A DNA stretch of 64,000 nt, from positions 49,095 to 113,094 of the IMG/VR virus record IMGVR_UViG_3300042896_000283, one strand, 5' to 3'. Below are positions 1,660-23,600 of the stretch, piece after piece (within the stretch, counting starts at the first letter, position 1; each line of letters begins with the position of its first letter). Source of the DNA: a virus. Under the pieces are notes generated by a model that worked only from the letters and a program-made list of their open reading frames with translations, was not told where the DNA came from and ran no database searches. The translations under genes and the position numbers were made by a program.

Positions 1660-2676
1660 TTAATAGTTTAGGTTATATTTTTGTTTTAGTTCATTAAGTT
1701 TAGTTGCATAGAACCAGGTGCAATATTTTTTTGATCTTTCATCATTAAGAATAACATTTAAGTTAGCATCTTTTGTTGGATCAGTTCCCATATGATATTT
1801 ACCTTTGTAAAAGGCTGGGTAACCATTTCCTGTCTCAGAAACTATTCCTGCATTATGAAAGATTGTATGTGTATCTAATTTGATAATAGGATCTGTAGCC
1901 CAAGCAAATGCTAATTCAGGCACCACTCTTGTTTCTTGTTCTCTAAACCATAGGTTCCATAAAACTGCCCACATATCTGCACACCAACTTTGATATCCAG
2001 AATTCTCATCTTTAAAGAACTCTCTATTTATTTTTTGTAAATATGTTCTTATAAGGATACAATCATTCATCACCTTACTCCAGAAGTTTGCATCTACATT
2101 CTTTAATAAATATTGTGCTCCTCCTGAATGATCATTATTAGCTTCAGCTATTTCTCTACTTATTCCTATAATACTAGCAAGTTCTCCAAGGATATCTCTA
2201 CTCTTGTATTCTTCTAGCTTCTCTGGAATCACTTGATGTATCTTACTATCAAAATACTTAGCATTGATATAGCTATTTGTATCTGATAAGTAGTTAATAT
2301 CATCCTCTAAGAATTTATCTAGATTGAAATCCTTCATAAATAGAATATCACTATCACAATAGAAGATAGCTTTTTCATTCAGTTCTGGATGTTTTTTAAA
2401 ATGTTTCCAAAGAACATATGGTCTTAGTACAGGAATATAGATTCCTAATAACTGATTTAGATTATCTTCATCTGCATAGTAATGAAACTCTGCTTCTGGA
2501 TATAGATCTTCTATCTGTTTCCACTTATCTCTATTCTCTCTTCCTTTAGGAGTGAATATAACAGATATTGCTTTATCAGAATGTCCTATTTCCTTTAAGC
2601 TCTCAAGCCAAAGATTTACTTGCCATGTATAGTAAATATCACTAGGACACGCTTGTAAAAATTTTAAATCTTTCAT
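1660..2676 (-). CDS. GT-A fold glycosyltransferase resembling GT95 (HPAT)/GT96 (SGT1) peptide O-glycosyltransferases
   Basis: Ordered motifs YYTWQ, YIPVLRPY, IFYCDSDILF (DxD), GGAQYLL, SWCADMWA, IFHNAG parallel the HPAT/SGT1 motifs YxxWQ, N(R/K)P, DxD/EPD, GWxxEMY, IxHY. Confidence 0.7.
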   Translation of the reverse strand: MKDLKFLQACPSDIYYTWQVNLWLESLKEIGHSDKAISVIFTPKGRENRDKWKQIEDLYPEAEFHYYADEDNLNQLLGIYIPVLRPYVLWKHFKKHPELNEKAIFYCDSDILFMKDFNLDKFLEDDINYLSDTNSYINAKYFDSKIHQVIPEKLEEYKSRDILGELASIIGISREIAEANNDHSGGAQYLLKNVDANFWSKVMNDCILIRTYLQKINREFFKDENSGYQSWCADMWAVLWNLWFREQETRVVPELAFAWATDPIIKLDTHTIFHNAGIVSETGNGYPAFYKGKYHMGTDPTKDANLNVILNDERSKKYCTWFYATKLNELKQKYNLNY

Positions 2677-2854: not shown

Positions 2855-4330
2855 TTAAACTATTGTTAATATTCCTAAATTTTTCCAAACAGCACCAGTT
2901 GGTAAACCAGCTGGACTTGTTGGAATATTCATAATTGATAAGTTGTTTACAAATGTAGTGCCACCCATATTAGCAGTTATATTACTACCAACAATAAAAG
3001 TATTAGCATAACTACTTGATATAGTATTATATCCACCACCTAAAATTGCTGAAACATATCCAGAATTATTATTATTTTTACCTCCTCCAACAAATGTATA
3101 AAAACCAGCTGAAACATTATTAAATCCTCCACTTACTGTTCCGTAATTTCCAGAAGCAGTATTGGTACTACCTCCACTAACTGACGAAACCGCTCCAGAA
3201 GCAATATTATTTTTACCGCCACTTACTACTGAACTATAATTTGAACTGGAATTTGCTTGTCCTCCACCAATAGAAGACCAACCGCCAGATGACACATTTC
3301 CAACTCCACCACTCACTGTGGCAAATCCAGCACTTACAGTATTAGATTTACCACCTCCAACAATAGAATATCCACTATAAGCGTGATTACCAACGCCTCC
3401 ACCAACTGTTGATCCAAAACCCGATGATAAATTACTTCTACCTCCACCAATTGTTCCAAAACTATAAGAAGCAGAGTTGCTACATCCACCTCCAATTGTA
3501 GATTTATCTCCAGAAGAAGTGTTTCCATATCCACCACCTACTGTTGAAGCATAAGAAGAAGCTAAATTGTGATAACCTCCACCTACTGTTGAAAATGTAC
3601 AAGAAGAAGTATTATTTTGACCACCCCCTATCATAGAATAATAACCAGAAGCATTATTAGAACTACCTCCAGAAATTACTGAACGAGTACCAGAAGCAAT
3701 ATTTGAAGCACCTCCACCAATAAAAGATTGATTACCAGAAGCAGTATTGAAAATACCACCACCAATTGTTGAATAATTATAAGAAGCAGTATTATTTTTA
3801 CCTCCAGATATTGTTGAAAGAATACCAGAAGCAATATTGTATAAACCACCTCCTAAAAAAGAACCATACGCACTTGATAAATTTGCTCTCCCTCCTACAA
3901 TTGTAGAAAGATAGCCAGTTGATTGATTGTTAGTTCCTCCAGAAATTATAGTTCCATAATTATAAGCAAGATTATTAAAACCACCACCTATTGTTGTACC
4001 CTGACTACAAGCAATATTACCAGCACCCCCGCCAATTGTAGCATAATAATTAGAAGATATATTATTTTTACCTCCTCCAATTACTGAAAAATTTGAAGTA
4101 GCATTATTATACGAACCTCCTCCAATAGTAGCATTTAACCCACTCGCATCATTAGTACCCAATACTGGTTGAATACCAGTAGCATTAGCATTATATTCAA
4201 ATGGACCTGATCCACCAGGAGTAGGAACAACAGAAGCTGTTACCTTTGTTAAATATTCTATTTGTTTAGCAATTTGCCATAATAGGTTTGATTCTGTTCC
4301 CCAACCTATTTGTTTACTTGGTATAGCCAT
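2855..4330 (-). CDS. fibre/adhesin with 14-residue GGxxNxAS beta-solenoid repeats
   Basis: About 27-28 repeats of (S/T)(I/V)GGGxxNxAS; C-terminus TFVNNLSI..IPTSxAGLP shared with 11623..12858. Confidence 0.8.
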   Translation of the reverse strand: MAIPSKQIGWGTESNLLWQIAKQIEYLTKVTASVVPTPGGSGPFEYNANATGIQPVLGTNDASGLNATIGGGSYNNATSNFSVIGGGKNNISSNYYATIGGGAGNIACSQGTTIGGGFNNLAYNYGTIISGGTNNQSTGYLSTIVGGRANLSSAYGSFLGGGLYNIASGILSTISGGKNNTASYNYSTIGGGIFNTASGNQSFIGGGASNIASGTRSVISGGSSNNASGYYSMIGGGQNNTSSCTFSTVGGGYHNLASSYASTVGGGYGNTSSGDKSTIGGGCSNSASYSFGTIGGGRSNLSSGFGSTVGGGVGNHAYSGYSIVGGGKSNTVSAGFATVSGGVGNVSSGGWSSIGGGQANSSSNYSSVVSGGKNNIASGAVSSVSGGSTNTASGNYGTVSGGFNNVSAGFYTFVGGGKNNNNSGYVSAILGGGYNTISSSYANTFIVGSNITANMGGTTFVNNLSIMNIPTSPAGLPTGAVWKNLGILTIV

Positions 4331-4344
4331 TATATATGTTTTTA

Positions 4345-5385
4345 TTAATAAATTTTTGTTAATGTAAAGTTTCTTGAAAATATTGAATTACCAGCAACAT
4401 TTGTATCCCATTCTGCTGTAATTAAAAGTGTATTACTAACAGTTGTGTCAAATGTTGTAGTATTGATATTAGTTAATACATATCCTTCAAATTGAGTTCC
4501 TCCATTTCTTATATAAGAAAATAATCCTCCTGATGAAATTGATGCCACTGTAGGTCCTCCTGTTGTTCTAATTGTAAAATACAAATTCATTATCCAAGAC
4601 TTACTAGTTGCAGCAGCCATATCAATTAATCCTGTATCAGCTAAAAGAATACCAGCCAATGTTCTCACTCTAATACGTAAGTTCGCAGAAGATCCACAAG
4701 TAACTAATCCATCTAATGCACATATAAAACTATCTCCACTAGTAAAAGAATTTGCAGGAACAGTTAATGAACCTACACCTGTTCCTATTATTGTTGTTTC
4801 TACTGCTGTACCTGTTACAGGTGCTCCATCAGCTGTTTGAGCATATAAACCTGGTAATCCTGCAGGACCTTGAGCACCTGTATCACCTTTAACTCCTTGT
4901 ATTCCCTGTGGACCTTGTTCTCCTTGAATACCTTGAGGACCAGCAGGTCCTTGATCTCCTTGAGGTCCTTTTATATCTCCAGCATCAAACCAGTTTGTTC
5001 CATTCCAACTCATTAATGATCCATCAGATAAAAGAATCCATGCATCACCAACATTAGCTCCAGGCATACTTCCTGCACCAGCTAAGAAAGCTGCATAATC
5101 TGCGTAGCTTCCTAATATAGTTACAGAGTTACCAGCAGTTCCTTGAGGACCCTGATCACCCTGTGTTCCTTGTATTCCTTGTATTCCTTGGTCTCCTTGC
5201 ATACCTTGCATACCTTGCTCACCCTGAATTCCTTGTGGACCTTCAGGACCTATTGGACCCTGTGGACCAGGAACACCTGGACCAGCAATATCTGATATAA
5301 GTTTATCAAGATTAAGCCACCCTTTGTATCCTGTACAAGGTTTGCAAAGTTGTTCCCAAAATCCTGCTTTAATAAATGTTGCCAT
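4345..5385 (-). CDS. collagen-like fibre protein
   Basis: Two Gly-X-Y tracts and a beta-rich C-terminal domain. Start moved to MATFIKAGFWE (5385) because of homology to 11623..12858 and a -7 element at 5404..5411. Confidence 0.85.
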   Translation of the reverse strand: MATFIKAGFWEQLCKPCTGYKGWLNLDKLISDIAGPGVPGPQGPIGPEGPQGIQGEQGMQGMQGDQGIQGIQGTQGDQGPQGTAGNSVTILGSYADYAAFLAGAGSMPGANVGDAWILLSDGSLMSWNGTNWFDAGDIKGPQGDQGPAGPQGIQGEQGPQGIQGVKGDTGAQGPAGLPGLYAQTADGAPVTGTAVETTIIGTGVGSLTVPANSFTSGDSFICALDGLVTCGSSANLRIRVRTLAGILLADTGLIDMAAATSKSWIMNLYFTIRTTGGPTVASISSGGLFSYIRNGGTQFEGYVLTNINTTTFDTTVSNTLLITAEWDTNVAGNSIFSRNFTLTKIY

Positions 5386-5403
5386 GATTAATGTTGTAAG
5401 TAT

Positions 5404-5411
5404 CAAAGGTA
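5404..5411 (-). promoter_or_regulatory. Bacteroidota -7 promoter element TACCTTTG
   Basis: Exact TAnnTTTG about 20 nt upstream of the ATG at 5385. Confidence 0.55.
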
Positions 5412-5465
5412 TAAGTTTTATACTTACATACAATGACTGTTGTTAAATTAAAATAACTAAAAAAA

Positions 5466-5825: not shown

Positions 5826-6305
5826 TTAAAATAAATTATATTCTAAAACTATACCATATCCACTAGGATTGTTTGGTTGTACGTAATAATTAATACCTGT
5901 ACTAAACTTAGTAAACTCAATCATTAAGTTTGTATATATAACAGGTTCTTTTAATGTAAATTTTATAGATTGTATACCAGCATATCCATGTATCTCAAAT
6001 GATTTCTTGCTTTTGATAATCTCTTTATTGATATCAATTACACTTTTTTGATAGAATATGATTGAATCTTTTATACCTAATTGATTCTTAAACTCAATTT
6101 CTTTATTCTGATAATTTTTGATTCTTACTTCTTGTTCCTTGATGATGTTCTTAGCAAAATCATAACGTACAAGATCAGTAGCAACCTTCCTAGCAACATT
6201 TTCACTAAGGGTGACAATAGAATCATTTTTCTGGGTATTTTGTCCAAATATACTATTTGTTAGTAACAATATAGTAATTACTATTATTAAATTTTTAAGA
6301 TACAT
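5826..6305 (-). CDS. secreted coiled-coil protein, putative outer spanin-like lysis component
   Basis: N-terminal signal peptide, coiled coil, beta-rich C-terminus ending in F; lies in lysis cassette. Confidence 0.5.
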   Translation of the reverse strand: MYLKNLIIVITILLLTNSIFGQNTQKNDSIVTLSENVARKVATDLVRYDFAKNIIKEQEVRIKNYQNKEIEFKNQLGIKDSIIFYQKSVIDINKEIIKSKKSFEIHGYAGIQSIKFTLKEPVIYTNLMIEFTKFSTGINYYVQPNNPSGYGIVLEYNLF

Positions 6306-6811
6306 CTTGCTTCTGTTATATTACGATTACCACTTATTTCTTTTAACTTAGAAGAAACACCTCCATTAGAAAGTTTATATTTTCTTTTTAAATAAATAAT
6401 ACTCTTATTACTTAATACATCTAATCTAAATTCATTTAAATCAATAACCTTGTATGTAGGATTTAAATTTCCTTTTTTAGAATTTGCTATTTTTAATAAT
6501 GCATATTCAGTATGTTTATATCCAGTTGTATCAGGACCTCTGTTACCACCAATAGATACATTATAGTTATCTTTTTTAGATATCCATTTTTTATCAACTA
6601 TAAATGATTCTTCTTCATAAGCTTCTTTTAAAGAATCAAAAAAACAAAGTATTTCAATTTTAAAATTTAACTTTCCATATTTTAAAATAGCTTTTTTTAA
6701 TTTATCTCCAGATCCTAAATATCCATCATTCAAGTTTTTAGTAGAATGTACTCCTATATAAGTTTTATCATTTACTAAATTTTTAGTTTGATATGTAAAA
6801 TGATGAATCAT
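6287..6811 (-). mobile_element. free-standing GIY-YIG homing endonuclease
   Basis: TYQTKNLVNDKTYIG, YLGSG..L..AI.KYG..NF..EIL, YN...GG, NUMOD3-like GYKHT; overlaps both neighbours. Confidence 0.85.
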
Positions 6812-7128
6812 TGTGAATATCTATCTGTGAAGTACTTTTGAAGCCCACTAACAGGCAAGCTATCAATAATCCTAATTTGTACATATTCTTTTTGTTTAAT
6901 GATTTTGATTCTATTAACAATCACTGTATCCACTTTTGATAAACTATCAATAATCTTACTAGATTCATGATCTTTCTCTTCAAGAATAAGAATTTTATTC
7001 TCTAGCTTTTTAGTTTGTTCTATTAGAATAGTATTTTTATCTTGGTTATATAGTGTAAAGAATATCCATATAATGATAATAATCACTGCCAAGTACTGAT
7101 CTTTTAAATAATCTAATACCTTATTCAT
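6808..7128 (-). CDS. putative inner spanin (N-terminal TM plus coiled coil)
   Basis: Single TM helix followed by a coiled coil, directly downstream of the putative endolysin. Confidence 0.55.
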   Translation of the reverse strand: MNKVLDYLKDQYLAVIIIIIWIFFTLYNQDKNTILIEQTKKLENKILILEEKDHESSKIIDSLSKVDTVIVNRIKIIKQKEYVQIRIIDSLPVSGLQKYFTDRYSQ

Positions 7129-7523
7129 TAGTTAGTAATGTTTATAAAGATCTTTTCTATCTTTGATGTTGCTTTTAATTTTGTAAACAATGTTTTATAT
7201 GTAGCTCTAGAGTTACCAATAAAGTTTAATGATTTACTACTACCTACAAGAATACATCCTTCTGTGTCAGTTGATTTGTTTCCACTGTGGATTCTTACGC
7301 CTTCATATCCAGGTACTGAAAGTAACAAAGGCATATATTGCTGAAAGTGATTAGAGAATGTAATTGCTATCTCATATTTTCCATAAGGAATAGCTGTAAC
7401 ATTTTGAATCTTCTTATCTCTAACTTTATCCTCTAACGTATAACACACAAATTTCCCATCAATAGAAAGTTCTCCTATTGTAGAATCATCTGTAAATATC
7501 TTTCTTTTAAGTTCTAGTATCAT
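7128..7523 (-). CDS. DUF5675-like putative endolysin
   Basis: TIGEL...CYTLE...AIPxGxY...RIHSGN...TEGCILVG; downstream of holin-like gene. Confidence 0.7.
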   Translation of the reverse strand: MILELKRKIFTDDSTIGELSIDGKFVCYTLEDKVRDKKIQNVTAIPYGKYEIAITFSNHFQQYMPLLLSVPGYEGVRIHSGNKSTDTEGCILVGSSKSLNFIGNSRATYKTLFTKLKATSKIEKIFINITN

Positions 7524-7531
7524 AGTTTATA

Positions 7532-7705
7532 TTAATTACCTGTTACATCATGATCTTTGGCAAAGTATCCAAATATTGCAATAGCGATAGCTAAACCAAA
7601 TTTAGGCCAATCTTTTTTTAAATCTATTTCATCTGAAGCCAATGGTTGTACAGCTAACATACATGCTAGTATAATACCCATTGAGGTTGTTTTCCAGTTT
7701 TTCAT
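7532..7705 (-). CDS. holin-like protein, 57 aa (not in ORF track)
   Basis: MKNWKTTSMGIILACMLAVQP...FGLAIAIAIFGYFAKDHDVTGN*; two TM segments directly upstream of the endolysin. Confidence 0.7.
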   Translation of the reverse strand: MKNWKTTSMGIILACMLAVQPLASDEIDLKKDWPKFGLAIAIAIFGYFAKDHDVTGN

Positions 7706-8025
7706 TATGGTTTAAGATTTTTATATACAATAGACAAATATTGAATAAGTGCACCAAGAGATAATACAATTGCTATTGTCCAAGTGAACCTTTTCTTAAA
7801 TTCTTCTTGTTTCTGTATCTTATCTTCTAATTGTTTAATTTTTTCTTTAAGGTCATGTATATCAGCAACAAATCCCCCTGTTTTTGTTAATGCATTTCCT
7901 AATATTGCGTCTACAACTTGTGTTAATTTTGTATCTATAGAAGTCATTTTCTCCTCTAGATCGTACAGGCGAGTATCCATGCTTTTAAGTTCTTTTTCTA
8001 CGTGTTTTTCAAATGCGTTTTCCAT
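7705..8025 (-). CDS. coiled-coil protein with C-terminal TM helix (XhlA-like lysis accessory)
   Basis: Heptad repeats then FTWTIAIVLSLGALIQYL; first gene of the lysis cassette. Confidence 0.55.
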   Translation of the reverse strand: MENAFEKHVEKELKSMDTRLYDLEEKMTSIDTKLTQVVDAILGNALTKTGGFVADIHDLKEKIKQLEDKIQKQEEFKKRFTWTIAIVLSLGALIQYLSIVYKNLKP

Positions 8026-8395: not shown

Positions 8396-8628
8396 TAGTC
8401 TAAGATTACAACATCACCTTTCCAACTAATCTTATTTGGGTTACATGTTAAGTGATGTTTATTTACAAGTTCTTGTCTTGAGCTATCCCATACATCATCT
8501 CTTGTTGTATGAGTTGGAACATTAATAACTATATTAGCACATATATGTTCTACACCATCAATTAATATTCTCCAGAATGTATGATTATCATCACACAATG
8601 TATTATATCTAATTTGTACTAAACTCAT
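8395..8628 (-). CDS. hypothetical protein
   Basis: 77 aa, overlaps both neighbours within the island. Confidence 0.7.
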   Translation of the reverse strand: MSLVQIRYNTLCDDNHTFWRILIDGVEHICANIVINVPTHTTRDDVWDSSRQELVNKHHLTCNPNKISWKGDVVILD

Positions 8629-9026
8629 AGCTTTCCATCTTTACGCATTTGTTCTCTGATCTTTGTAGCAGATATATCTCCTATCTCTGTAGGTGGAATA
8701 TGTTCTATAATATCATAACCAACACCTCTTCCAAACTCTACAGAACATATATCTGGAACTATCATGATTTTGATTCTTCCTTCTTCTATAAGAGAATGAT
8801 AATGTGCATTTATGTTATCATATACTTCTTCTGCTGTAAAAGGATTCTTTTCATTCACTTGTCCATCACGAATGCATATAAGCACATTCTTTCCTTCATC
8901 TAGAGCTCCTTTAAACAAAGCTTGGTGCCCAAGGTGCAATGGTTGCCATCTTCCAATAAACATTGCAAACTGTCCTTCTTTAGAAGGAATTGATGATTCT
9001 ACGTGTATCTTTTTAGTCCAACTCAT
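8625..9026 (-). CDS. HxGH-family nucleotidyltransferase (candidate minimal ATP sulfurylase)
   Basis: FIGRWQPLHLGH, NPF and ISATKIRE motifs; overlaps the APS kinase gene. Confidence 0.75.
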   Translation of the reverse strand: MSWTKKIHVESSIPSKEGQFAMFIGRWQPLHLGHQALFKGALDEGKNVLICIRDGQVNEKNPFTAEEVYDNINAHYHSLIEEGRIKIMIVPDICSVEFGRGVGYDIIEHIPPTEIGDISATKIREQMRKDGKL

Positions 9027-9466
9027 TTTATTAGTTTTAAAATTTTAGCAATTGATTCTTCTGGTGTATCATCTGTAGTATCTACATCAATAAAGTTCTC
9101 TAATGGAGCTTCATAATTTGCTACTCTGAAATGATCTCTTTCTCTAGGTGAGTCTGTATGAACATATAGTTCTATAAGATCTGCACCAAGCATAGATTTA
9201 AGTTCTTCTCTTTGCCATCTGTAAGGAGCAATAAGAGAAACCACCACTGTGTAATCTTGGTTATATAAATAGTGTGCTATCTTCTGTGCACCTTTAACAT
9301 TATCTATTCTTCCTTGTTCAGAGAAATCTACATTTAATGTAAGGGCTCTTAGATCATCACCATCTATATGAAATACTTTTCCATATTTTTCTAGTTCTTC
9401 TTTTAGTAATTTAGCCAACACTGTTTTACCATGTGAAGGCTGTCCTGTAAACCAATATACTGCCAT
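9023..9466 (-). CDS. cysC: adenylyl-sulfate (APS) kinase
   Basis: WFTGQPSHGKT P-loop, IDGDDLR, DFSEQGRIDNV, VSLIAPY, YEAP. Confidence 0.85.
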   Translation of the reverse strand: MAVYWFTGQPSHGKTVLAKLLKEELEKYGKVFHIDGDDLRALTLNVDFSEQGRIDNVKGAQKIAHYLYNQDYTVVVSLIAPYRWQREELKSMLGADLIELYVHTDSPRERDHFRVANYEAPLENFIDVDTTDDTPEESIAKILKLIK

Positions 9467-10335
9467 TATTTCAATGCTTTAATTATATCCTCACTATTAA
9501 ATATATTTCCTAGCTCTGTGTATGGACATCTAGAGATATCTTCGAATAATGGAAGTTTCTGTAAATATGCATTATCAAAGTTTAATTCTTTATCTGGAGT
9601 GTTAGCATCTAAATTAGCATGCATATCATAACCAAACACTTTAGAACTTGTTCCTATCCAACATACAAGACTTGGTAATCCTAGAGCTGCAGCAATATGC
9701 ATAGCAGATGAATCAATAAGAAGTCTTCTTTGTGCTAATGATAATAAAACAGCTATACTTCTGAATGAATCAAGAGCTCCTACTGTATCTGCATACATTG
9801 GTTGATCCTCACGTTTGATATGTACAATTGTATAATCTTTTTTGTAATGTTGTATTACATCATTAATTACTGGAGCTGGAATATCTCTAACCCAACTATA
9901 GTTCAATGGTTGATCTATTGGCCCACCATTAGGCTGTATAGCCATAATAGGTTTTTCTAATTGGTAGAATGGAGCAAAGTATTCCACTTCTGCTTTAGAG
10001 ATAAACAATTCAGGTAGTTCATTATTATATGGTACCTCACATAACTTACACCAGATTTCAATTAAATGTTTTGATTCTGTTAAGTAGTCTGATGTTGTAT
10101 AAGGATCTGTAATAAATACCTTTGCATCCTTACCTCCTATGTAATCTTTATATAATCCTAATGTAGTTCCATGAACTATCACCTTATTTACATTTGGATT
10201 ACCAATAAATACATCTGGGTAAGATGTAAGAACAATTACATTTGCTTTAGGGTGTTCAGTTCTAATAGCTTTTAATACAGCTGTAGATAAGATATTCTTA
10301 CCTAAGCCTCCTGATATATCAAATATTATATTCAT
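9466..10335 (-). CDS. GT9-like (heptosyltransferase-like) glycosyltransferase
   Basis: GGLGKNI N-terminal motif, NPNV, IDSSAMHIAAALG..S; start set at MNIIF (10335) to avoid overlapping the sulfotransferase gene. Confidence 0.8.
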   Translation of the reverse strand: MNIIFDISGGLGKNILSTAVLKAIRTEHPKANVIVLTSYPDVFIGNPNVNKVIVHGTTLGLYKDYIGGKDAKVFITDPYTTSDYLTESKHLIEIWCKLCEVPYNNELPELFISKAEVEYFAPFYQLEKPIMAIQPNGGPIDQPLNYSWVRDIPAPVINDVIQHYKKDYTIVHIKREDQPMYADTVGALDSFRSIAVLLSLAQRRLLIDSSAMHIAAALGLPSLVCWIGTSSKVFGYDMHANLDANTPDKELNFDNAYLQKLPLFEDISRCPYTELGNIFNSEDIIKALK

Positions 10336-10345
10336 AGTTGTTGGT

Positions 10346-11167
10346 TTATACGTATCCAAATTTCTTAAAGAACCAAGGATATGTGTTTTTAATTGATTGA
10401 CAGTTTTCATATCCTAAGATTTCTTCAAAATCATCAGGCTTTCTTTCAAACTTAGATCTTAGTTTATGATCTCCATAGATACCATGTATAGCATCATTCT
10501 CATGTGTATGCTGTGTAACAGTTTCAAAATTGTGACCTTCATAATATGGAAGTTCCATATACTCATAAAAACGTCTCATTTCTTGTTCAGGGAAATCCAT
10601 TAAGTCTTCATAACGAATAAATAATACATTCTTATCTATTCCTTGATCAAACATATCTTTTAGTCTATCCATAGATATACCAACTGGTGGTCCATCTGCC
10701 CATAGATTAATTCTTTTTTGAAGAGTGGTACCTACTAATTGATTAGCATTTTGAATATGATTTTCTTGTGTAGGATTTTTACGAAAGTTTTTCTCCATAG
10801 AAGCATAGACAGCACGTACATCTCTAATCATACATACCACTTTAGGAGCTATCATAAACTCACTAGCAAGATTAAAATGTATTCCCCATCCTCTATTCTT
10901 ATCTAATACATAAGGTTTATCTGTAAGGGCATTAAAATATCCATGCATTGCATTATGACAAAATCCTATAAATGCATTTTTCATTAGTTCAGCATCTTGT
11001 GCTTTAACTTCTGATGAATGGTTATAGTTTGCTTTTGCTCCTAGAAGTAAATCTAAGAAACCTGATGTAGGTGTACAATGGAAATCTGGATTATCTGCTA
11101 CAATATTTTGCAGAAGAGTAGATCCTGCTCTAGGAAGAGAGGAGTTAAAAAAGATTCTTTTCTTCAT
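10346..11167 (-). CDS. PAPS-dependent sulfotransferase
   Basis: 5'-PSB loop SLPRAGSTLL, DKNR, 3'-PB RDVRAVYAS, IRYEDL. Confidence 0.9.
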   Translation of the reverse strand: MKKRIFFNSSLPRAGSTLLQNIVADNPDFHCTPTSGFLDLLLGAKANYNHSSEVKAQDAELMKNAFIGFCHNAMHGYFNALTDKPYVLDKNRGWGIHFNLASEFMIAPKVVCMIRDVRAVYASMEKNFRKNPTQENHIQNANQLVGTTLQKRINLWADGPPVGISMDRLKDMFDQGIDKNVLFIRYEDLMDFPEQEMRRFYEYMELPYYEGHNFETVTQHTHENDAIHGIYGDHKLRSKFERKPDDFEEILGYENCQSIKNTYPWFFKKFGYV

Positions 11168-11256: not shown

Positions 11257-11580
11257 TTATGCTACAGTAGTTGTAGTAGTTGTAGTATCTTTTGCAATTT
11301 GCAATTCAGCAATCAAAGCATCAATAAGAGGTTTTAAAGCTTCATCATCTTTTACAGTGAATGAATCTTTATTTACCCATCTTACATCCTTATAACCAAA
11401 AAGGTTAATAGCATGAAAAGGAGAAATTAATGCAGGATTTTCTGCAGGTTTTTTAGCAAAGATTGCCTCTACTAAAGGAGTAACAGTAGTTAATGTATCT
11501 GTAGATACTTTTACTGATAACTCTTTTGAATTGATTTGGGTTTCGCCATATCCAAAGATATGAATTGTGAAATTTTCCAT
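11257..11580 (-). CDS. hypothetical protein with C-terminal T7 tag (possible fibre partner)
   Basis: Ends KD-T7-VA; directly downstream of a fibre gene. Confidence 0.75.
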   Translation of the reverse strand: MENFTIHIFGYGETQINSKELSVKVSTDTLTTVTPLVEAIFAKKPAENPALISPFHAINLFGYKDVRWVNKDSFTVKDDEALKPLIDALIAELQIAKDTTTTTTTVA

Positions 11581-12966: not shown

Positions 12967-15900
12967 CTATCTTAGCCCATAATTAGATTGAACCTTTATA
13001 CCAAGATCTTTAGCAAGTGCTGGATAGAACATTGGTAAATATCCTTGCATTTGATTTGTAAAAGGAAATGTTTTCATTAGATATTTGATAACATGTGTTT
13101 TCTCAGCAGCTTCATCATCTCCTGTAAGCAATGCCCAATTCTCTTTACGGAAGTTATCCATTAATCTAGCAAAATTAGTTATTAATGCAGCCGATGGAAA
13201 GAACCCCTGAGATATAAGATCTAATCCACTAGTAGGATCATAGAAGTACATAAGCTCTCCTTTAAATTTATCTGTGGCTTTCATCATAAACTTATATTGA
13301 TTTATAACAAGTGGGTCTTCATCTTTATCTGGTGCAGCAGCTTTTAATGCAGCAATTGCTGTAAATACTATTGCTAAGAATACAACATCTACTAATTGAG
13401 ATTTAATATTTTGTCTAGCAAGATCTATGAATTCAGATTCTGTCATTTCAAGTGTCTTACCTGTTTCATTTTCATATTCATTTCTTTTCTTTTCAAACAT
13501 ATCTTTCATATATTCTACTCCCTTCTCATTACCAGTTAATGAATTATATAGTTTACCTAACCCTGATACAGGATTTGTAAGACTAAATTCATCTGTTAGC
13601 ACTTTCATCACCATTCTAGTTCTTCCCCATTCATAAGCATCAGAAGCAGAGTTGAATTTTAAACCACCTAAACGTACATCTACAAGTCTAGGAATCCAGT
13701 TCTTGAACACCATGAATGATTTTCCAACTACACTCATGTTAATCATTCTAAGATCATCTTCAGATAGATTACCTAATGCATCTTTAGATACTTGTTGTAC
13801 CTTTCTTCTAAGTTCTATTACAGAATCAGATTTTTGATCTATACCAGGAATAACAAACTTGTTATCAATAATCTCTCCAAGTTTTAACACTCCTTTTTCT
13901 TCAATAAGTCTTTTTACTTCTGCATCAAATTTTTCTTCATAAGCTTTTCTATCTGCTACAGATCCTTTATATTTATCTTGATACTCAGGTTGAGTTCTTA
14001 AATAATCTCTAACATTTATTACTTTACCATCTTCTACAATTGAATTATTAAGAAAGGCATAGAAGTTTGATGTCTGTACATTTAAATCTGTTTGCTTCAT
14101 TAATATCAATAAGAAATCTTGTATACCTTCTTGTGATAGTGTATTCAAAGATAACTTTTTAGCAATTTCTCTATTATAGTTTTCTGTTAATGGTAAGAAA
14201 TATTCTAATGCACCAAGCATTTTCTTTTGATCTGTACCACCAAACTTATTTGAGAAAATCATCATTTCTGCAGCTAGATAATCTTTCTTAGTAAAATATT
14301 TACCAGAGTTGATTAATGATTGAGCATTACCTCCAAAGAAGTTAGAAGAAGCAGAAAGAACATTAAATCCTAATGTTGTAATTTGAAATGTATTATTTAA
14401 TTGATTAATTAATTTATTTACACTTAATTGTCTATTAGATATATCTTTTGGAAATACATCTACACCAAGTTTATTGTTTAGTGTTTCTCCCCATGTTCCC
14501 ATTTTAGATAAAAGTTGATCAAATGCTTGACTATCTACAAACTTCTGTCCATAGATAATTGCTTTCATCATATCCTCTACAAGTTGAGAGTTTGCTCCTT
14601 TAGTTTCAGTATATTGTACTACACCATCTTTAATGTCAGTTTTACCAAACATAGATGTAGCTATAGACTTTTTATTTTTTTCAACAGCAACAATAGCCAT
14701 CACTTGATCTTCTATTTCACTTAAGTATTTATATCTAAGTGCAGCTTCATTATAAAATGCCATAGTTCTAAATAAATCAGTAGAAGTTTCTTGCTCTAAA
14801 GGTCTAGTAAAATATTTAGGTATCTTGTTTACAGGTTTTCCTGTATTAGGATCAATTTGTCCATATCCTATATCACCTTCATCTACAGATATATCAGTAA
14901 AGAATTGTTGACCAAGTTTAACTTGTCCACCAGTGATTAACTTCTCTACTAAGTTCTTTCTTATAAATGGAAGGAATGTTCTAGCAAATCTTTTATTAAT
15001 ATATCCAAGATCAGCATATTCATTATTCTTTTCAATTATATAATTATAAAATTCCTTAGCTGGAGCATTCTCTGGTTTATTTAATTCTATCCATTCTTTA
15101 GATGTCCATTTATCTTTCTTTGGAAACTTTCTAGTTTCATTATATATAAACCATCCAGAAGATGTAGTAGTAGAAGTATCATATAAATTTCTAGCTTTAT
15201 ATATTTCCATCACCACTTCATTAGGAAGTTTACCAGTATTAGCTAATGCATCAGATTCTTCTGATGTTAATAGTCTAGGTTTACTTTTAATCCTTTCTAT
15301 TTCCTCAGCAAGCTTTTCTTTTAAATGTTCATTGTATGCAGTAACATCTATATTTTCTCTAATCCATGAACTATCTCTATCGTCTGATACACTTTCTAAT
15401 TCTTTTTTAGTTTTAGCTTTTAAATCAGTATAGAATTCTGGATTGTATTCATCTATAAGTTCATTAGAATCTTTCTTCTTAAGAATATCAAAATAGTTTT
15501 TATATGATAATCCTTTTCCTTTTGCCCAATTTTCAAAATTAGTTTTTAAGTCCTCAAGTTTTTTACTTTCTGCTAATGTATCCATAGAAGAATAAGCAAA
15601 TGCTCTATTTGCTTTCTTATATAATAACTGAATAGCTTTACTTTGTAATGTAGCTGTAGAAGCAAATAGTTTTGTAAATCCTTTAATTATCTTTTCTGGA
15701 GCAAGAAAGTTATCTACTTCTTCTCTTTGAGCAATTATATTTGCTGTAAACTCTTCTAGAATTACTTCTAAGTCATCTTCTAATTCTTTTGCATTTTCTG
15801 ATGTTCTTCTTAAATCTTTTTTAAGATCTTCATCTTCTTTACTATCTCCTAGCAATCCTTTTAGTTCTGAATAAAGATCTGTATAAATACCAATTGCATA

Positions 15901-17691
15901 TTGTGCATCTGAAATCTCTTTAACAAAATCATTAACTTCTTTTTCACTAAATGACTTAGCATCTTTATCTACAAATTTATCATTATATCTTTCTATAAGT
16001 TTATCAATAGTCTTATTTAATAACTGAGCTTGTCTAACTAATGGTTGAATATTTTCTTTAACTTGTAATTGTCTTATAGAATGAAATAATGAATTAAGCA
16101 ATTCATCTTTATTCAACTTCTCAGATTCAGGAACTGATTTATCAGAAATCTTTGTGTACAATTTATTAAGTTCTCCCAATAACTCATCTATTTTTCTCTT
16201 ACCAGTTTTTTCATTCTTAATTGGAACAGGAAGTAAATAATCATCTTTAATGTTTTTAACATTAACATCTCCAATTTTAATACTTAGTAATGCTGGAAGA
16301 ATATTTTCTTTTGGATTTGCTTTTGAATATAAAGCCTTTATAGGAATCATTCTTGTTTGTTTGAACTTCTCACCTTTTACGCCATAAGCATTTTGTAAAA
16401 TAGCTCTATATTGCTCCATTTGTAGATTCCATGCAGTGTTCTTATACCAAGGAATATCTGTATACTTATCTACATCAAGATCCATAAACTTCCAGTCAAG
16501 AATACTTACATCACCTTCTTTAGTAACAGCTAAGAAATCTACAGTTCCTGCACGATTTGCTTTAGGATTATAGATAGTAACCTCAGCCATGAATCTTGTA
16601 CCTTTAGGAAAAGACTTAAGACGTGCTTCAAGATTTTCCTTTAATTTAGTATACATGTCTCTATTATTAGGATTGATTCTAGATATATATCCAGTATCAT
16701 CTAATTGTGTATCTCTTAAATATCCATCATCATCTACAAATAAAGTTTGTATATATTCAAGATCAGCATGTCCTGCTGTACCTTTCTCAGCTTTTAAATC
16801 ATTAACAGCATTTTGGAATTCTGTTTTATTTATATCACCATTTCTAAAAGTTCTTTCATACCATTCATCTACTAATGCAGAAACTCTAGGAATTACTTTA
16901 CCATTAATTTTATAACCACCTTCAGTAGGTTTCTCTATACTATTAGATACTTCTTTGATTCTATTAATGATAGCTTCTTGAGGATCTAATTGAAGAAAAG
17001 CTTTACCTTCTTCTTCTCTAATATCTTCTGCAGTACCAATAATCTTACCTGTCATAACATCCATAGACAATTGATCAAATCCTGATGTAGAGATTAGATT
17101 CTTAAACCAATCAACTATTTTATCCCATAAGCTTTGCATTTTAGCAATGTTCTCTGGTTTCTCTAAAGATCCTTCATTGTTCTTAATAATAATTTCAGCT
17201 AGCACCTTTGCAATAGCTTCTTCTTTAAGCATAATTACATCAGGCTTTCCATCTAATTGATACATAGGATTTTGTCCGTATGTAGCAAACACTTCTTTTA
17301 ACATAGCATAACCATTAATCTCACTCATCAACTTCTTGTATAAAGCTGGATTAGTTTGTTTAATGATAGCAACAGCAAAGTGCATAGCTTCTTCAGGAAG
17401 AGACTGTGCTTCTTTACCTTCTACTACTTGTATAAGTTTCTGTGTAAGTAGAGCAGCACCAGCAGCATCTTGTTTGACACCATCAACAATAACATTTTTC
17501 ATGGCTTTTGTATCTACACCAATACGTGTAAGAAAGTCATTAACCATTGCTATTGTTTTAGGAGAAGCTGTAGATGATATAACATCACTAATGTTATTTT
17601 GTTTATCAAATTCAATTTCAGCTAGAATAGGATTACCTACTCTAGCTAATATTTCTTGGTATGCTGGATCATTTGGATTTATACAAGCCAT
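12967..17691 (-). CDS. large virion cargo/ejection protein with PD-(D/E)XK nuclease-like domain
   Basis: 1574 aa, follows the vRNAP; GTAGH...AEVTI...AGTVD...ILDWK...QMEQY; degenerate zincin PEEAMH. Confidence 0.7.
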   Translation of the reverse strand: MACINPNDPAYQEILARVGNPILAEIEFDKQNNISDVISSTASPKTIAMVNDFLTRIGVDTKAMKNVIVDGVKQDAAGAALLTQKLIQVVEGKEAQSLPEEAMHFAVAIIKQTNPALYKKLMSEINGYAMLKEVFATYGQNPMYQLDGKPDVIMLKEEAIAKVLAEIIIKNNEGSLEKPENIAKMQSLWDKIVDWFKNLISTSGFDQLSMDVMTGKIIGTAEDIREEEGKAFLQLDPQEAIINRIKEVSNSIEKPTEGGYKINGKVIPRVSALVDEWYERTFRNGDINKTEFQNAVNDLKAEKGTAGHADLEYIQTLFVDDDGYLRDTQLDDTGYISRINPNNRDMYTKLKENLEARLKSFPKGTRFMAEVTIYNPKANRAGTVDFLAVTKEGDVSILDWKFMDLDVDKYTDIPWYKNTAWNLQMEQYRAILQNAYGVKGEKFKQTRMIPIKALYSKANPKENILPALLSIKIGDVNVKNIKDDYLLPVPIKNEKTGKRKIDELLGELNKLYTKISDKSVPESEKLNKDELLNSLFHSIRQLQVKENIQPLVRQAQLLNKTIDKLIERYNDKFVDKDAKSFSEKEVNDFVKEISDAQYAIGIYTDLYSELKGLLGDSKEDEDLKKDLRRTSENAKELEDDLEVILEEFTANIIAQREEVDNFLAPEKIIKGFTKLFASTATLQSKAIQLLYKKANRAFAYSSMDTLAESKKLEDLKTNFENWAKGKGLSYKNYFDILKKKDSNELIDEYNPEFYTDLKAKTKKELESVSDDRDSSWIRENIDVTAYNEHLKEKLAEEIERIKSKPRLLTSEESDALANTGKLPNEVVMEIYKARNLYDTSTTTSSGWFIYNETRKFPKKDKWTSKEWIELNKPENAPAKEFYNYIIEKNNEYADLGYINKRFARTFLPFIRKNLVEKLITGGQVKLGQQFFTDISVDEGDIGYGQIDPNTGKPVNKIPKYFTRPLEQETSTDLFRTMAFYNEAALRYKYLSEIEDQVMAIVAVEKNKKSIATSMFGKTDIKDGVVQYTETKGANSQLVEDMMKAIIYGQKFVDSQAFDQLLSKMGTWGETLNNKLGVDVFPKDISNRQLSVNKLINQLNNTFQITTLGFNVLSASSNFFGGNAQSLINSGKYFTKKDYLAAEMMIFSNKFGGTDQKKMLGALEYFLPLTENYNREIAKKLSLNTLSQEGIQDFLLILMKQTDLNVQTSNFYAFLNNSIVEDGKVINVRDYLRTQPEYQDKYKGSVADRKAYEEKFDAEVKRLIEEKGVLKLGEIIDNKFVIPGIDQKSDSVIELRRKVQQVSKDALGNLSEDDLRMINMSVVGKSFMVFKNWIPRLVDVRLGGLKFNSASDAYEWGRTRMVMKVLTDEFSLTNPVSGLGKLYNSLTGNEKGVEYMKDMFEKKRNEYENETGKTLEMTESEFIDLARQNIKSQLVDVVFLAIVFTAIAALKAAAPDKDEDPLVINQYKFMMKATDKFKGELMYFYDPTSGLDLISQGFFPSAALITNFARLMDNFRKENWALLTGDDEAAEKTHVIKYLMKTFPFTNQMQGYLPMFYPALAKDLGIKVQSNYGLR

Positions 17692-20600
17692 TAGTAACAG
17701 TCTTTTAGTTTATTAATTACTTCTTCTTTGTTTTCAGCTATAGCTTTATTAATATAATCTTTAGCTTCTTCAGTAGTCATTTTATGCTTGTCAGCAAAAT
17801 TCTGTAATATCTCTTCTTTTCTTTCAGGAGTGAAATCTTCTATCGTATCAAAAGTTTCAGTAGTTCTAAACAAATCTAATTGTTCTCCTGGTTTTATTTG
17901 TTCAACTTTAGTTTGTGTAGATGTAATAGCTGGTTTACTAGGCATACCTGGTTCAAGAGGCATCACTCTTCTCATTGTAACTGTTACTCTATATGAACCT
18001 GGTTCATAAGCTTTACCATCTAACTTAGTTGTTAATTCTGGCAAGAAACTATCTTGAGGTTTAGCAAAAGTTCTATGATAAACTTCTCTGTTTACACCAT
18101 CAACACCAAATACATATCCTGCACCTGCTTTAAGATTTAATTGTTTAGGAGCACCATCTCTTGATTCAATAGAGAAGTTTCCTGTACCACCAATGTTAAT
18201 TCCTATTACAGGATAACCAATTGCAGATCTACTTTCATCTACATCATTATGAGAACTAATAAAACTATTAGGTTCATAAAGATTAATAATGGCACCATCA
18301 TAGTTAGTCATATCTACACCTGTAGCCTTTTGCATTAACTCTCTAAAACGAGCAGTGATAGGTGCTAAAGGTTGATTATTAATAGAATTATCATAGTATC
18401 CATATTTAGTTTTGTTTCCTGGATTGATAACATCTGGAATATTCATAGCTTGTTTTCCAGGATTGTTTGACTTATAATCCCATCTCAATCCTAATCCAAT
18501 CATTTTACTAGCAGCTTCTCCTTTATTAGTTTTAGCAGCTTGTTCTTCTAAGAATGGTTTTAGATAATCAAATAGTTCAAGTTGTTCATCTTTAGATAAA
18601 GCTTCTTGGTTTACATATATTCCTTCTTTAATTTCTACTCCTTTCGGTTTTCCAATCATTTGTGTAGGTGCAACTATTTCTTCTTCTGTTTGTAAAGATA
18701 CAATTTCTTCTGTAATATCACCACCAAAATAATCAATAATAACTGAATCAGGAATCTCATTCTCAATCTTCACTGTACCATTATTAAGAACAGATTTTCT
18801 TCCATCTAAATAGTATTCAGAAACTAGGTTACCATCACCAAGTAAGTTAACTAGTTTGTACACATAATCACCTTTAATAGTTGTTACAGGAGTACCATTT
18901 GAGTATTTCACTTTTTGATATCCAAATACATCTGTTAATGATGTATCTCCACCTAATCTTACAGCTCTCATTGCTTGTGAACTAATAGTTTGTCCAGTAA
19001 CAATATTGATGTTTTCACCTATTTTATTTGTAATCACTTTAGGCACTTTTACAAAATCACTATTAGCACCATTACGAGCATCATATATTGGACTCAATGT
19101 TAACACTAGTCTTCTCTCTTGCATAGTTGGTCCATCAAATCCTTCTAAGAATGGTGATACTTTATATTTATATACATCATTACCATATGGATCTTCTCCA
19201 ACATATTCTACTATTGGATCAAAGTTTTCATCTCTTTCAAAATAGAATCTAGGAGTGGTAGTAGGAACTATTGTTTCATCTTTCCAATTGTTCTTTTGAA
19301 ACATTCCTTTAGTGAAATATTCTACATCTGCATCATCTACTAATGTATCTATAATAGGTTTGATCTTTTTAGCATAATCTTCTATTGGAACAATGTTATT
19401 AATAGATATAGAAGATTGATAAGTTCCTTGTAAAAGAGCCACCTTAACAATGTTATTGTACAACTCAGGATCTAACTCTCTTAGTTCTCTCATCATCTCT
19501 ACATATAAGTTCTCATCATATGCTTCTTTTAAATTCACTTTAAGTTTGATAGTTTGTGTACCATCATTCTTTTTAGATGCTTCAGGAACAAGATCTTGTA
19601 GCAATCTCATATTAGGATATTTCACCTTAGCTTTTGCTAATTGCTCAGCAATAGAATTATCTCCTGTAGTTAATGCTAATATCTCTGTATTAAGTCCAGA
19701 TTTAATTTGTACAATAAAGTCAAGGAATGAAGCCTTAGCTTTACTAGCAACTTTAGAGAAATCATCATCTTTCATAAACTCTTGTTCTTCAAATGATCTT
19801 AACACTTCATTAGTGATATCTACAAATTGCTCTTGTTCAAGTTTAATAAATGAACCAACACTTTTCATTGCAAAGTCTATCAATCTTTTTTGATTACCAA
19901 TTGAACTTGAATCCAAAAGTTTATCTACAGAAGAGAATATGTTTTTATTTCTTGCTATATCTGTTCTAGTTGTTTTCTTATGGAAAGTATCAGAGTTTTT
20001 AAACTTAGTTGTATCATAATTTGTAGCTTGTGTAAACTTGAAACTATATTCAGCCATTTTAGAATACTTTAAGAATTCTTTAAGAATAGCTCCTTGTTGT
20101 TCATTTTCTTGTTTAGTTGACATCTTATTCTTATTATTAGCATAAGTTTCAATATTAGCTTCTAAACTATCTACATCAAATGATTCTTTTTCTGTACCTC
20201 TAGCTCCTACTTTAAGAAGACCAAACTTAGCTCTCACCTCATTTATATTTGATGGATTGTATAAGAATGAAGTTCCTTTATTTTCAAGCATGTCTAAGTA
20301 TTCAGAAATAATTGGTTGGTTCATGAACCATATTGTATTTTGACCAACACCAATTCTTTCTAAGAACATAAATGTTCCAATAGCAGCATCAGATTTAATA
20401 ATCTTCATAATGAATGGATCTTTTGCAATATCTACTACAGCAGTAGCATATCCAGAAAGTCTATTGGATATCTTTTCTAATGACCCTTTAGCATTTGGTA
20501 TAGCTGTATTAGTTCCAGAAAGACTCACCTCACCATCAATTTCATTATGTGGAAGTTTAACTTTACGATCTCCTAATATTGCTCTTTCATCATAAGTTAA

Positions 20601-23600
20601 TTTATCTGCTACAGCATCAATGTCCATAACTAGTTTCATTCTTTGTGCAAGAGCATGTCCTGTAATATTTACAGCAACAATACCTACCCATCTTTTACCA
20701 GTAAGGAATGCATGTCTTAGAGTTGTAAGATAGTTTCTATTAACCATTCTATTTTTAATAGATGTCTCATCATCTTTTCTTATATCATCTAGTTCTTTAG
20801 ATATATCTTTTAATCCAGCATCTCCAATAGGAGTAATTAAGTTTTCATAGTTACCTTCTAACGTAATAAGTTTTTCAAATGCATCAAAATATCTATTTTC
20901 AAGAGCTTTCTTATACATGTTATTAACATATTTATCTCTCATCTCTTTGTTCAATAACTTAGAGTCAAGTTTTTTTGTTTTTTCAGAAAGAGATTCTATT
21001 TGAGAAGTCATATATTCTGAAGGTAACATTTCTAAATCATCAGCTTGATAAGTTATTTCATTAATTAAATCTTCATTTCTATTATAGAAATCTTGTTGCT
21101 GTAAAGCTACTGCTTTTGAAATAGGTTTTGTATTTTCAAAAAAGTCAAGTAAGTCTTTTCTAAATTGATCACTATTAGCTATTTTCTCAATACTATTTTT
21201 AATTGTATTATCATACACTCCACCATAAAATTCTTTTGTAGCTTTTTCAGATTCTTTATAATCAACTGCATGAAGTCTTCCACTCTCATCTACATATACA
21301 GATTTAAGATACATATTTAATTTATCAATATCAAAATCTGATCCAGCTTGAGATGTAATCTCTGAAGGAACAATAACAGTTTTACCCATGAAGTCTGGTA
21401 AAAAACCTGCCACTCTAATAGCAGCCATAGAAGACATAGCTTGAGCAGGAATACGAAAAGCAATACCTTTTAGAATTCCTTGGTTCTCAGGTTTGTTTAA
21501 TTCTCTAATAAGATCTGCATCATTAGCAAATTTACCTTTAAGAGATTTCTTAAACCAATTAGGAATTAATACTTCCATGTAAGGATCTTCTTTTGTAGGA
21601 AAATGTAGTCTATCACTAGTAAGTACCACTTTACTTTTTTGATCTGCTGGTAACGCTTCATATTCAGCTATAGATAGTTTTCTATATCCATCTTTCTCTT
21701 TAATTGCAATACCTCTACCTTGTTTAGAATTCTCCCATCCTGTAACAGGAGCTTGTACATATCCTCCTCCACTCATTTTTGGAGAAACTAATGATTTATT
21801 AACCATTGAATATACAACATCTTTAATCTGTTTATATGCAGGAGATGCTTCAAATGGAATTCTGAACTCACCATTCTCATCTAATAGAATAGTATCTTTA
21901 GCATTATTAGAAAGTTGTCTTCTAAATAATTCATGTTCAAGAGTTTTTGAAATGATTGATGGATCTATTAATTCAAATTGACCCATACCAAGATCTTCTA
22001 CACCAAAGCTAGAAAGAAGTTGTGTATATGCATTATCATCAAGATCTTTAAGAGCTTGGTTATAATTATCAAATGCTTCTTTTGCTCCTTCAATAGTTTC
22101 TTCACCATTGTCAAACATATCTAATGTAACAATTTTGGTAGGTTGAGAACCTCTTGTTTGTTCTCCTCCACCTTCATATGAAGTTTCTAATTGAATACCA
22201 TTTATACTCCATGGTACTAGTACTTTAGTATATCTATCAAATGGAGTATCATTAAATGTTCCATCTTGATTATAAAGACTATGAGTTTTCTCTATACCAA
22301 GTTTTCTACCTGATTCAAATATTGCATAATCAATTCTTTCTTTAAACATTTTAATATATAACTTCTCAAGATTAGTTCCTACAACTGCACTATAATATAT
22401 AGGCATTTGAGAAGTTTTATCTAATACAAGTTTTATCTCATTTTCACCAAACTGACTACCTGATACAATTGGTTTAATTATATCAATTACATGTTTAGGT
22501 TGTGGTTCTGTTAATGTTTTTTCATCATTAAGTTTTAATTCTTTACTAGAATATTTATATTCTCCTTTATCAGATAATGATTTTCTAGTGAAAGCCATTT
22601 CATATTGATGCCAAGCTTCAGCTTCTTCAGGCCACTGTCCATTTTTATTTTTAACTTCTCTATAAGCTACATCAGTTATTAAAGAAAAAGCATCTGCTTC
22701 ATTTATACCTTCATATCTAATTGTATCTAACTCAACATCTTTTAATGTTACTGTAGAAGCATATTCTTTATTACCATGATACCCATAATCATCTGGAGTT
22801 AGTTCTATATCACCAACTTTGTTTTGACTATCTAAAAATGCATTAAACTCAGGACTATCAAATGTTGTTCTTCTTGGAGATAAGAAAGATTTAACACGTT
22901 TAGGTTCATCTAATATACCATCTTTAATTTTAAATTGATATGGATCTCCAAATAGTATTTTATGAAACTCTATATTATTGATAAAGTTATTTGCATTTAC
23001 AAATGTTATTACATTATCAAGTTGTGTTTCAGTCATTTTTAATTTATTGATACCTGACTTCATAGCAAAGTTACTATCAAGACCAACATATTTATACATG
23101 TTCTCAGAATCAGTCTTAGTCTTAACAGCTGATACCACTTCACCTTGTTTAAGTAAAATATCTTTTGTACCTTTTGCAATATCTTGTATAGATTTAGCTA
23201 CAGCGTCATTGATAGCTTTACTATTCTTAGCAATATAATCTTTAAACTCATCAGCTGATGTAGCTTCATCATCGATCATTATATTAAGTTCTTTCAATTG
23301 ATCTGGAGCATAGTCTTCTAATATCTCTTTAAAGAAACGTAACTCTTTAGCTTTTGAACCAACGCTTTTAAGAGTTTCTCTATTTTTCCAATCACGAGCT
23401 AATGCAATATCATCATTTAAATATCCTTTAAATATATCAAATATTTCATCCCAAGCTCTACCACCTACTATTTCTTCATATGATATATGATTACCAAGAT
23501 TCATCATCCATTCTGTAGCTCCATCTGCAGGAATAAGAATGTAATAATCTCCATTGATATTTTGGTTAATCTCTTGTGTAAATCTTTGACCTTTAGTTAG

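Follow-up and report, generated by a model that had tools for sequence, protein, structure and literature searches.

A phage glycosyltransferase family paired with poly-threonine tags and its probable role in O-glycosylation of virion proteins

The glycosyltransferase gene and the threonine runs of its genome

The DNA examined in this study (the window, 64,000 nucleotides) is the right-hand 64 kb of the IMG/VR record IMGVR_UViG_3300042896_000283 of an uncultured phage, a complete genome of 113,094 bp with direct terminal repeats. The late region, which includes the genes for the terminase, portal and major head protein, lies within the window and is encoded entirely on the minus strand. An open reading frame (ORF) at 1660-2676 (positions are those of the window, and genes lie on the minus strand, unless stated otherwise) encodes, from ATG to stop, a soluble glycosyltransferase (GT) of the GT-A type with 338 amino acids (aa). 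It is flanked on both sides by small genes whose products carry runs of seven threonines (Thr; such a run is written T7). The enzyme, its family and its pairing with Thr runs are the subject of this work.

The only family matched by the GT was PHROG 4417 (E 1.8e-55), whose function is not annotated, and a Pfam search of the protein returned nothing at E<=10. The family is large, with 2666 homologues at E<=0.001 in 90% clusters and 771 clusters at 50% identity, and for its stand-alone members every source name returned was 'hypothetical protein'. An earlier note, made by eye, had pointed out six motifs in the protein, and all of them are present: YYTWQ (residue 15), VLRPY (83), CDSD (107), GGAQY (185), WCADMW (231) and IFH (272). 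Alignment of 62 diverse family members showed that Y80, D108, D110, Y136, Q229, F257, H274 and K291 are invariant and that R85, G185, G186, Q188 and D234 are nearly so. The invariant columns are likewise fixed in 58 bacterial homologues and in a third subfamily (n = 102), which aligns to the first at an hhalign probability of 100%. The motifs, which coincide with the conserved blocks of the family, are therefore true family blocks rather than chance words. The same note had stated that the protein has no signal peptide or transmembrane segment, and this also holds: over windows of 19 residues the Kyte-Doolittle mean peaks at 0.77, and a beta strand is predicted at the N-terminus.

The gene immediately downstream of that for the GT, 1457-1642, encodes a 61-aa mini-protein that consists of a conserved domain of about 47 aa ending in CC, the sequence N-x-x-x-T7 and three further residues, and 1272-1454 encodes a 60-aa paralogue that shares this domain and ends in T7-VAP. 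Directly upstream, 2705-2842 encodes a 45-aa mini-protein in which an N-terminal module (MAIPS-QIGW) is followed by T7-VAPI. All three mini-proteins are candidate acceptors of the enzyme. The N-terminal module, of about 33 residues (MAIPS-QIGW ... LLWQI-KQ-E), is common to the 45-aa protein and to a Gly-rich, beta-roll-like fibre protein of 491 aa (2855-4330) that has no Thr run; in relatives it continues either as a fibre body or as a Thr tail alone, much like a shared docking element. A collagen-repeat tail-fibre protein of 362 aa is encoded at 4345-5433, and the GT gene thus lies within a fibre cluster. Just downstream of the T7 mini-proteins, 830-1255 encodes a 141-aa protein that matches phrog_858, annotated in PHROGs as a starvation-inducible transcriptional regulator (E 3.7e-15).

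Runs of at least six Thr residues are in great excess in this genome, with 15 observed compared to 0.01 expected from residue shuffles. All 15 are confined to ORFs that belong to the virion module and are read from the minus strand; the remaining 49 kb of the genome has none. Roughly half are C-terminal tails and the others are linkers, frequently beside cysteines. In addition to the mini-proteins, T7 or similar runs end a 107-aa protein (11257-11580; T7-VA), an 83-aa protein (48425-48676; T7-LI), a 120-aa protein (52460-52822; T7-A) and a 399-aa protein with a Thr/Ser-rich C-terminal tail (53585-54784; T6SS ... ST5ST). Two Cys-rich proteins carry internal linkers, namely CC-T7-C in a 229-aa protein (48692-49381) and three Thr linkers (T7, T6S4T7 and T7) in a 629-aa protein (49393-51282). 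A 2006-aa protein (38309-44329), which matches phrog_37948, a family annotated as virion structural (E 8e-104), has four Thr-rich runs, at residues 1574, 1587, 1752 and 1998, the last of which is a C-terminal T8. The codons inside the runs are mixed (ACA, ACT, ACC and ACG), indicating that selection acts at the protein level. The possibility that the T7 runs are a DNA-repeat artefact was rejected, as the codons differ between runs.

Pairing of the transferase family with threonine runs in phages and bacteria

The neighbourhood of the GT gene is conserved among related phages. Among 80 related IMG/VR loci, 78 carry Thr runs on the strand of the GT gene, and the length of the run is exactly seven in 214 of their 311 Thr runs. 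V/A/L-A/P-P usually comes after the run, and in the mini-proteins an invariant Cys-Cys stands before it. Close relatives differ in how many T7-xAP units a mini-protein has, with counts between one and four. Two complete relatives possess the GT gene without an exact T7, which was considered as a break in the pairing; this was rejected, since the same neighbour genes in these phages bear T6 or TTSTTTT tails.

The pairing also recurs far from this clade. In seven other phage lineages, homologues of the GT adjoin capsid, tail or neighbouring proteins with poly-Thr tails. In Chryseobacterium phage MA9V-3, two genes upstream of the GT homologue, one of them directly adjoining it, encode T4SST6, and in Enterococcus phage phiFL1A the annotated major tail protein, encoded directly upstream, and a capsid-position protein both have C-terminal Thr runs. 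Thr runs likewise end the products of both upstream genes in Lactobacillus phage Semele as well as gp11 and gp18 of Clostridium phage phiCTP1, and they are present in the products of three upstream genes in Staphylococcus phage vB_SpsS-DH5 and of one gene upstream and one about 2 kb downstream in Enterococcus phage nattely. The neighbours in Levilactobacillus phage ENFP1 bear TTVAP repeats. Adjacency to Thr runs was also seen at stand-alone homologues (shorter than about 360 aa) in genome contigs of Lentibacillus, Oceanobacillus, Bacillus, Lactococcus and Flavobacteriales.

In a reverse test, IMG/VR records were chosen solely by an ACN x7 pattern or by a GAN x7 pattern. The result showed that the GT family occurs in 8 of the 91 ACN x7 records compared to none of the 45 GAN x7 records (Fisher p = 0.036; binomial p = 8e-14 against an assumed base rate of 0.1%). 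The GT is a far better predictor of Thr tags than Thr tags are of this GT.

In Sphingobacterium, Pedobacter, Chitinophaga and others, the GT domain forms the N-terminal half of proteins of 450-830 aa, the second domain of which is Glyco_transf_7C-like. GG-leader precursor peptides are encoded close to these fused homologues in a dozen or more loci of Sphingobacterium, Pedobacter, Olivibacter and Chitinophaga (the labelled loci, from the first three genera, are L336, L339, L344, L346, L348, L360, L363, L381 and L388), and most of the peptide cores have a Thr/Ser-rich start followed by a Cys-rich part. Inspection by eye, with no profile search, found ORFs of ABC-transporter size with a C39-peptidase-like N-terminal motif in loci L334, L339 and L347. 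The fused-GT loci may be unrecognised glycocin-type bacteriocin clusters of Bacteroidota. In Sphingobacterium detergens (L334:247-492), an 81-aa leader-type peptide ending in T13 is encoded 5 kb upstream of the fused GT homologue, and large ORFs of 868 and 352 aa lie between the two. The GG-leader neighbourhood is an independent hint that the family acts on peptides in the cytoplasm. Taken with the poly-Thr neighbours in eight phage lineages, it indicates that the enzyme is very probably cytoplasmic and peptide-acting, as the earlier note had proposed.

These neighbourhoods also bear on the nature of the acceptor. The GT could act on something other than protein, such as the bases of phage DNA or a polysaccharide of the host's wall or surface, with the poly-Thr runs being unrelated flexible linkers. 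A GT-A fold alone does not specify the acceptor, and passages of PMC12619734 report phage GTs that glucosylate phage DNA or change host serotypes. However, the gene stands in a late fibre/virion cluster beside Thr-tailed genes in eight phage lineages, the bacterial homologues accompany exported peptides, and the protein has no membrane segment for lipid-linked or wall substrates. In addition, no thymidylate-synthase-like hydroxymethylase was found in this genome or in three of the four others tested (phiFL1A, phiCTP1 and vB_SpsS-DH5), which speaks against glycosylation of DNA bases. A non-protein acceptor is therefore very unlikely.

Fold, active site and relation to the plant HPAT and SGT1 enzymes

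Sequence searches of the PDB with the GT protein and with a 62-sequence profile returned only noise. An AlphaFold2 model built with the family alignment (pLDDT 96.6, pTM 0.93) showed an alpha/beta/alpha sandwich of Rossmann-like type, and most of this domain can be matched to solved GT-A enzymes. The Foldseek search of the PDB was headed by glycogenin, xyloside xylosyltransferase 1 and WbbM (E 1e-7 to 1e-5), which are retaining GT-A enzymes in the CAZy classification. The nearest solved folds are retaining enzymes of GT8/GT24 type, several of which glycosylate proteins. In the model, D108 and D110 follow immediately after a strand at 103-107 and H274 lies at a strand at 272-274. This arrangement fits the usual metal site, and the DxD pair and H274 are the predicted metal ligands. 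The enzyme presumably uses a retaining mechanism and, because its nearest structural relatives are all retaining, an alpha-linked product is likelier. In relatives, the GT domain is fused to GT2, GT6, GT32, PF11397, O-FucT and SAM methyltransferase domains, and Glyco_transf_7C is present in 20 of the 58 bacterial forms. The DxD-plus-His GT-A fold and these fusions agree with the claim of the earlier note that the protein is a phage glycosyltransferase. A predicted complex of the GT with the 61-aa T7 mini-protein had a score of 0.01, which says nothing either way on binding.

The structural neighbours suggest two other roles. As glycogenin is the best Foldseek match, the GT might be a self-glycosylating primer, or some other enzyme of glycogenin-like kind, whose product is an oligosaccharide, free or protein-primed, that has nothing to do with the Thr runs. 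However, its identity to glycogenin is 8-14%, the GT8 Pfam model PF01501 has no match on the protein or anywhere in the phage genome, and the conserved pairing with Thr tails would be left without a reason, making this role highly improbable. Sequence identity is 8-13% for the protein-acting GT8/GT24 enzymes as a group (glycogenin, Gat1 with its substrate Skp1, GlyE with PsrP, XXYLT1 and UGGT), and the GT model is some 60-90 residues longer than glycogenin or LgtC.

Alternatively, the GT could extend a glycan begun on the Thr tails by another enzyme of the host or phage, as GlyE does for serine-rich repeat proteins and Gat1 for Skp1. The top structural neighbours GlyE, Gat1, XXYLT1 and UGGT all lengthen glycans on glycoproteins, and in this phage a GT2-family protein and a possible GT9-like protein, both described below, could act first. 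On the other hand, a protein side chain is the direct substrate of glycogenin, which is just as close a neighbour, and we know of no host cytoplasmic enzyme that primes poly-Thr. Furthermore, five complete Firmicutes phages with the GT gene and Thr tails gave no GT2 or GT1 Pfam match, so that the GT is the only recognisable phage GT in them, which favours a first-step over an extending enzyme. We consider an extending role unlikely.

The earlier note had read the order of the motifs as that of the plant extensin O-glycosyltransferases HPAT (GT95) and SGT1, the peptidyl-serine galactosyltransferase (GT96). GT95 is predicted to be GT-A-like (PMC8476585), and GT96 is described as a relative of it (PMC8012813). 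The glycosyltransferase and peptide-acting parts of this reading are supported and the family membership is not, since the HPAT model PF23452, with a Pfam gathering cut-off of 23.9 bits, never reached threshold. It gave no match on the GT protein at E<=10 or in the whole phage genome, nothing in five Firmicutes phages or five bacterial genomes that all carry homologues, and no match at E<=0.01 among the 58 bacterial homologues. A scan of 401 Bacteroidota genomes was also blank, although these genome-scan blanks are weak, as 14 control genomes gave no match either. Sub-threshold matches were found for 3 of 164 members in two of the three scanned sets (E 0.0024-0.012), a range that clearly spurious families also reach. 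One of these three matches came from a scan of 102 relatives of the Myxococcota-type homologue, where it stood beside recurrent spurious ones. GT34 was matched once in the scan of family members. Among the 30 named ESM Atlas clusters that lie nearest, 22 belong to a set in which PF23452 marks 10-58% of the members of the clusters shown; this neighbourhood is a lead, not a test. Taken together, membership of the phage GT in GT95/GT96 is not supported, and a distant relationship of its family to HPAT/SGT1 is plausible.

There is also a functional likeness, in that HPAT, the hydroxyproline O-arabinosyltransferases of plants and algae, and SGT1, which is a peptidyl-serine alpha-galactosyltransferase, are peptide-directed and place the first sugar onto repetitive stretches of hydroxy amino acids, as is proposed here for the phage GT. 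The plant HPAT enzymes are Golgi type II membrane proteins (PMC8012813), whereas the phage GT is soluble and has no such anchor, its highest 19-residue mean being the 0.77 given above. Moreover, the plant acceptors are Hyp and Ser, whereas the candidate acceptors of the phage GT are Thr runs and not Pro/Hyp runs. The donor that characterises HPAT is UDP-L-arabinofuranose.

Proposed glycosylation of the virion and its accessory genes

In numerous phages that are not related to one another, the family adjoins Thr-tailed proteins of the head, the tail and the fibres, and the GT therefore most likely sugar-coats the virion. We infer its acceptor and biological role as follows: it probably works in the cytoplasm as a metal-dependent peptide Thr O-glycosyltransferase and initiates a mucin-like coat on the proteins of the virion. 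In the proposed mechanism, the soluble, divalent-metal-dependent GT-A enzyme would take a nucleotide sugar as donor and place the first sugar on Thr hydroxyls of short poly-Thr runs, mostly T7 and usually followed by V/A/L-A/P-P. These runs, which lie in structural-module proteins of the phage itself as tails at the C-terminus or as linkers between domains, would be modified in the cytoplasm before the virion is assembled or while it is. The glycan might then be extended or modified by other phage enzymes (a GT2 protein, a possible GT9-like protein, and a sulfotransferase with an APS kinase), and the particle would come to carry mucin-like tails that are stiff and hydrophilic.

Candidates for these later steps lie in and near the window. 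A GT2-family gene (PF00535, E 1.1e-13; open frame of 225 aa) is located on the plus strand at G000:46878-47159 of the complete genome, about 2 kb before the start of the window. Within the window, a cassette at 8625-11167 adjoins a T7-tailed gene. It comprises a cytidylyltransferase-like ORF (8625-9026) that overlaps an APS kinase ORF (9023-9466; PF01583, E 1e-18), a tentative source of activated sulfate; a possible second GT of 314 aa (9466-10410), whose language-model neighbours carry GT9 on 46% of their members and which is a tentative accessory enzyme; and a 273-aa sulfotransferase (10346-11167; PF13469, E 1e-14, and PF00685), tentatively glycan-modifying. By means of this cassette the phage may make activated sulfate and sulfate something. 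A fuller version of the proposal, in which one soluble enzyme recognises exactly seven Thr residues as a portable tag encoded in the genes and starts O-glycans on a dozen virion proteins, the GT2 and GT9-like proteins extend them and the sulfotransferase, fed by the APS kinase, sulfates them to give a sulfated mucin-like coat, is rather unlikely to hold as a whole.

Several other features of the genome were recorded. The virion module contains very large ORFs of 4343 aa (17691-30722), 2006 aa (38309-44329, the Thr-rich protein described above) and 1574 aa (12967-17691). The product of 54809-55540 weakly matches crAss-like phage tail ring protein 3/4 (PF25710, E 0.0044, below the cut-off), which hints that this clade of phages of about 113 kb is distantly crAss-like; at least 488 relatives of the portal protein were found in IMG/VR. 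A GIY-YIG (SegE-like) endonuclease gene at 6287-6811 in the late region, within a stretch of lower G+C (0.267 for 6001-8000), may be a mobile homing endonuclease.

Some findings weigh against the proposal that the GT starts glycans on virion proteins. The case rests wholly on neighbourhood and fold, and no glycan has been observed on the proteins of any carrier phage. Most T7-bearing proteins of this phage have no assigned function, and 83 of the 91 T7-carrying viral records of the reverse test, including 10 of the 11 near-complete ones, are without the GT family. The Myxococcota-type chromosomal subfamily has no Thr-rich neighbour. The closest solved structures also include the extenders of protein-linked glycans discussed above (GlyE, Gat1, XXYLT1 and UGGT).

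According to PMC12619734, GTs encoded by mycobacteriophages have been connected with glycans that sit on capsid and tail-tube subunits at their C-termini (Freeman et al., 2023, Cell Host Microbe). As described in the citing papers PMC12619734 and PMC13313380, this is the closest published system. The tags described here are likewise C-terminal and are borne by capsid-position and major tail proteins in Firmicutes phages and by virion-module proteins in this phage, although they are known from genes. The present system differs in its hosts (Bacteroidota-type and Firmicutes phages) and in its sharply defined poly-Thr tag, mostly T7, and its enzyme family is as yet unnamed. A virus-encoded cytoplasmic GT for a major capsid protein is also found in chlorovirus PBCV-1 (A64R), but this is a eukaryotic giant virus with no poly-Thr tag, and A64R builds atypical N-linked glycans.

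On the bacterial side, the nearest comparison is with the glycocins (sublancin/SunS and glycocin F), which are bacteriocin peptides glycosylated in the cytoplasm before export; the known glycocin transferases are GT2 enzymes that act on single Ser, Thr or Cys residues. The fused bacterial homologues similarly adjoin GG-leader peptides, the link being one of neighbourhood, whereas they belong to a different enzyme family and the cores of their peptides start Thr/Ser-rich. A literature search returned no paper linking this GT family or the poly-Thr tails of phage proteins to glycosylation.

If the sulfated-coat version is true, T7 and the GT would constitute a minimal cytoplasmic O-glycosylation tag system of Bacteroidota and Firmicutes phages, which bacteria reuse for glycosylated bacteriocins. 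If the proposed role of the GT is correct, virion O-glycosylation would be common, occurring in abundant freshwater Bacteroidota phages and also in phages that infect Enterococcus, Staphylococcus, Lactobacillus, Lactococcus and Clostridium, a group that includes therapy candidates and fermentation pests. A soluble transferase of 300-340 aa and a seven-residue tag would provide a compact pair for cytoplasmic glycoengineering. PHROG 4417 and a family of more than 2,600 proteins would gain a name, and there would be a testable bridge from these bacterial and viral enzymes to the plant enzymes that glycosylate extensins.

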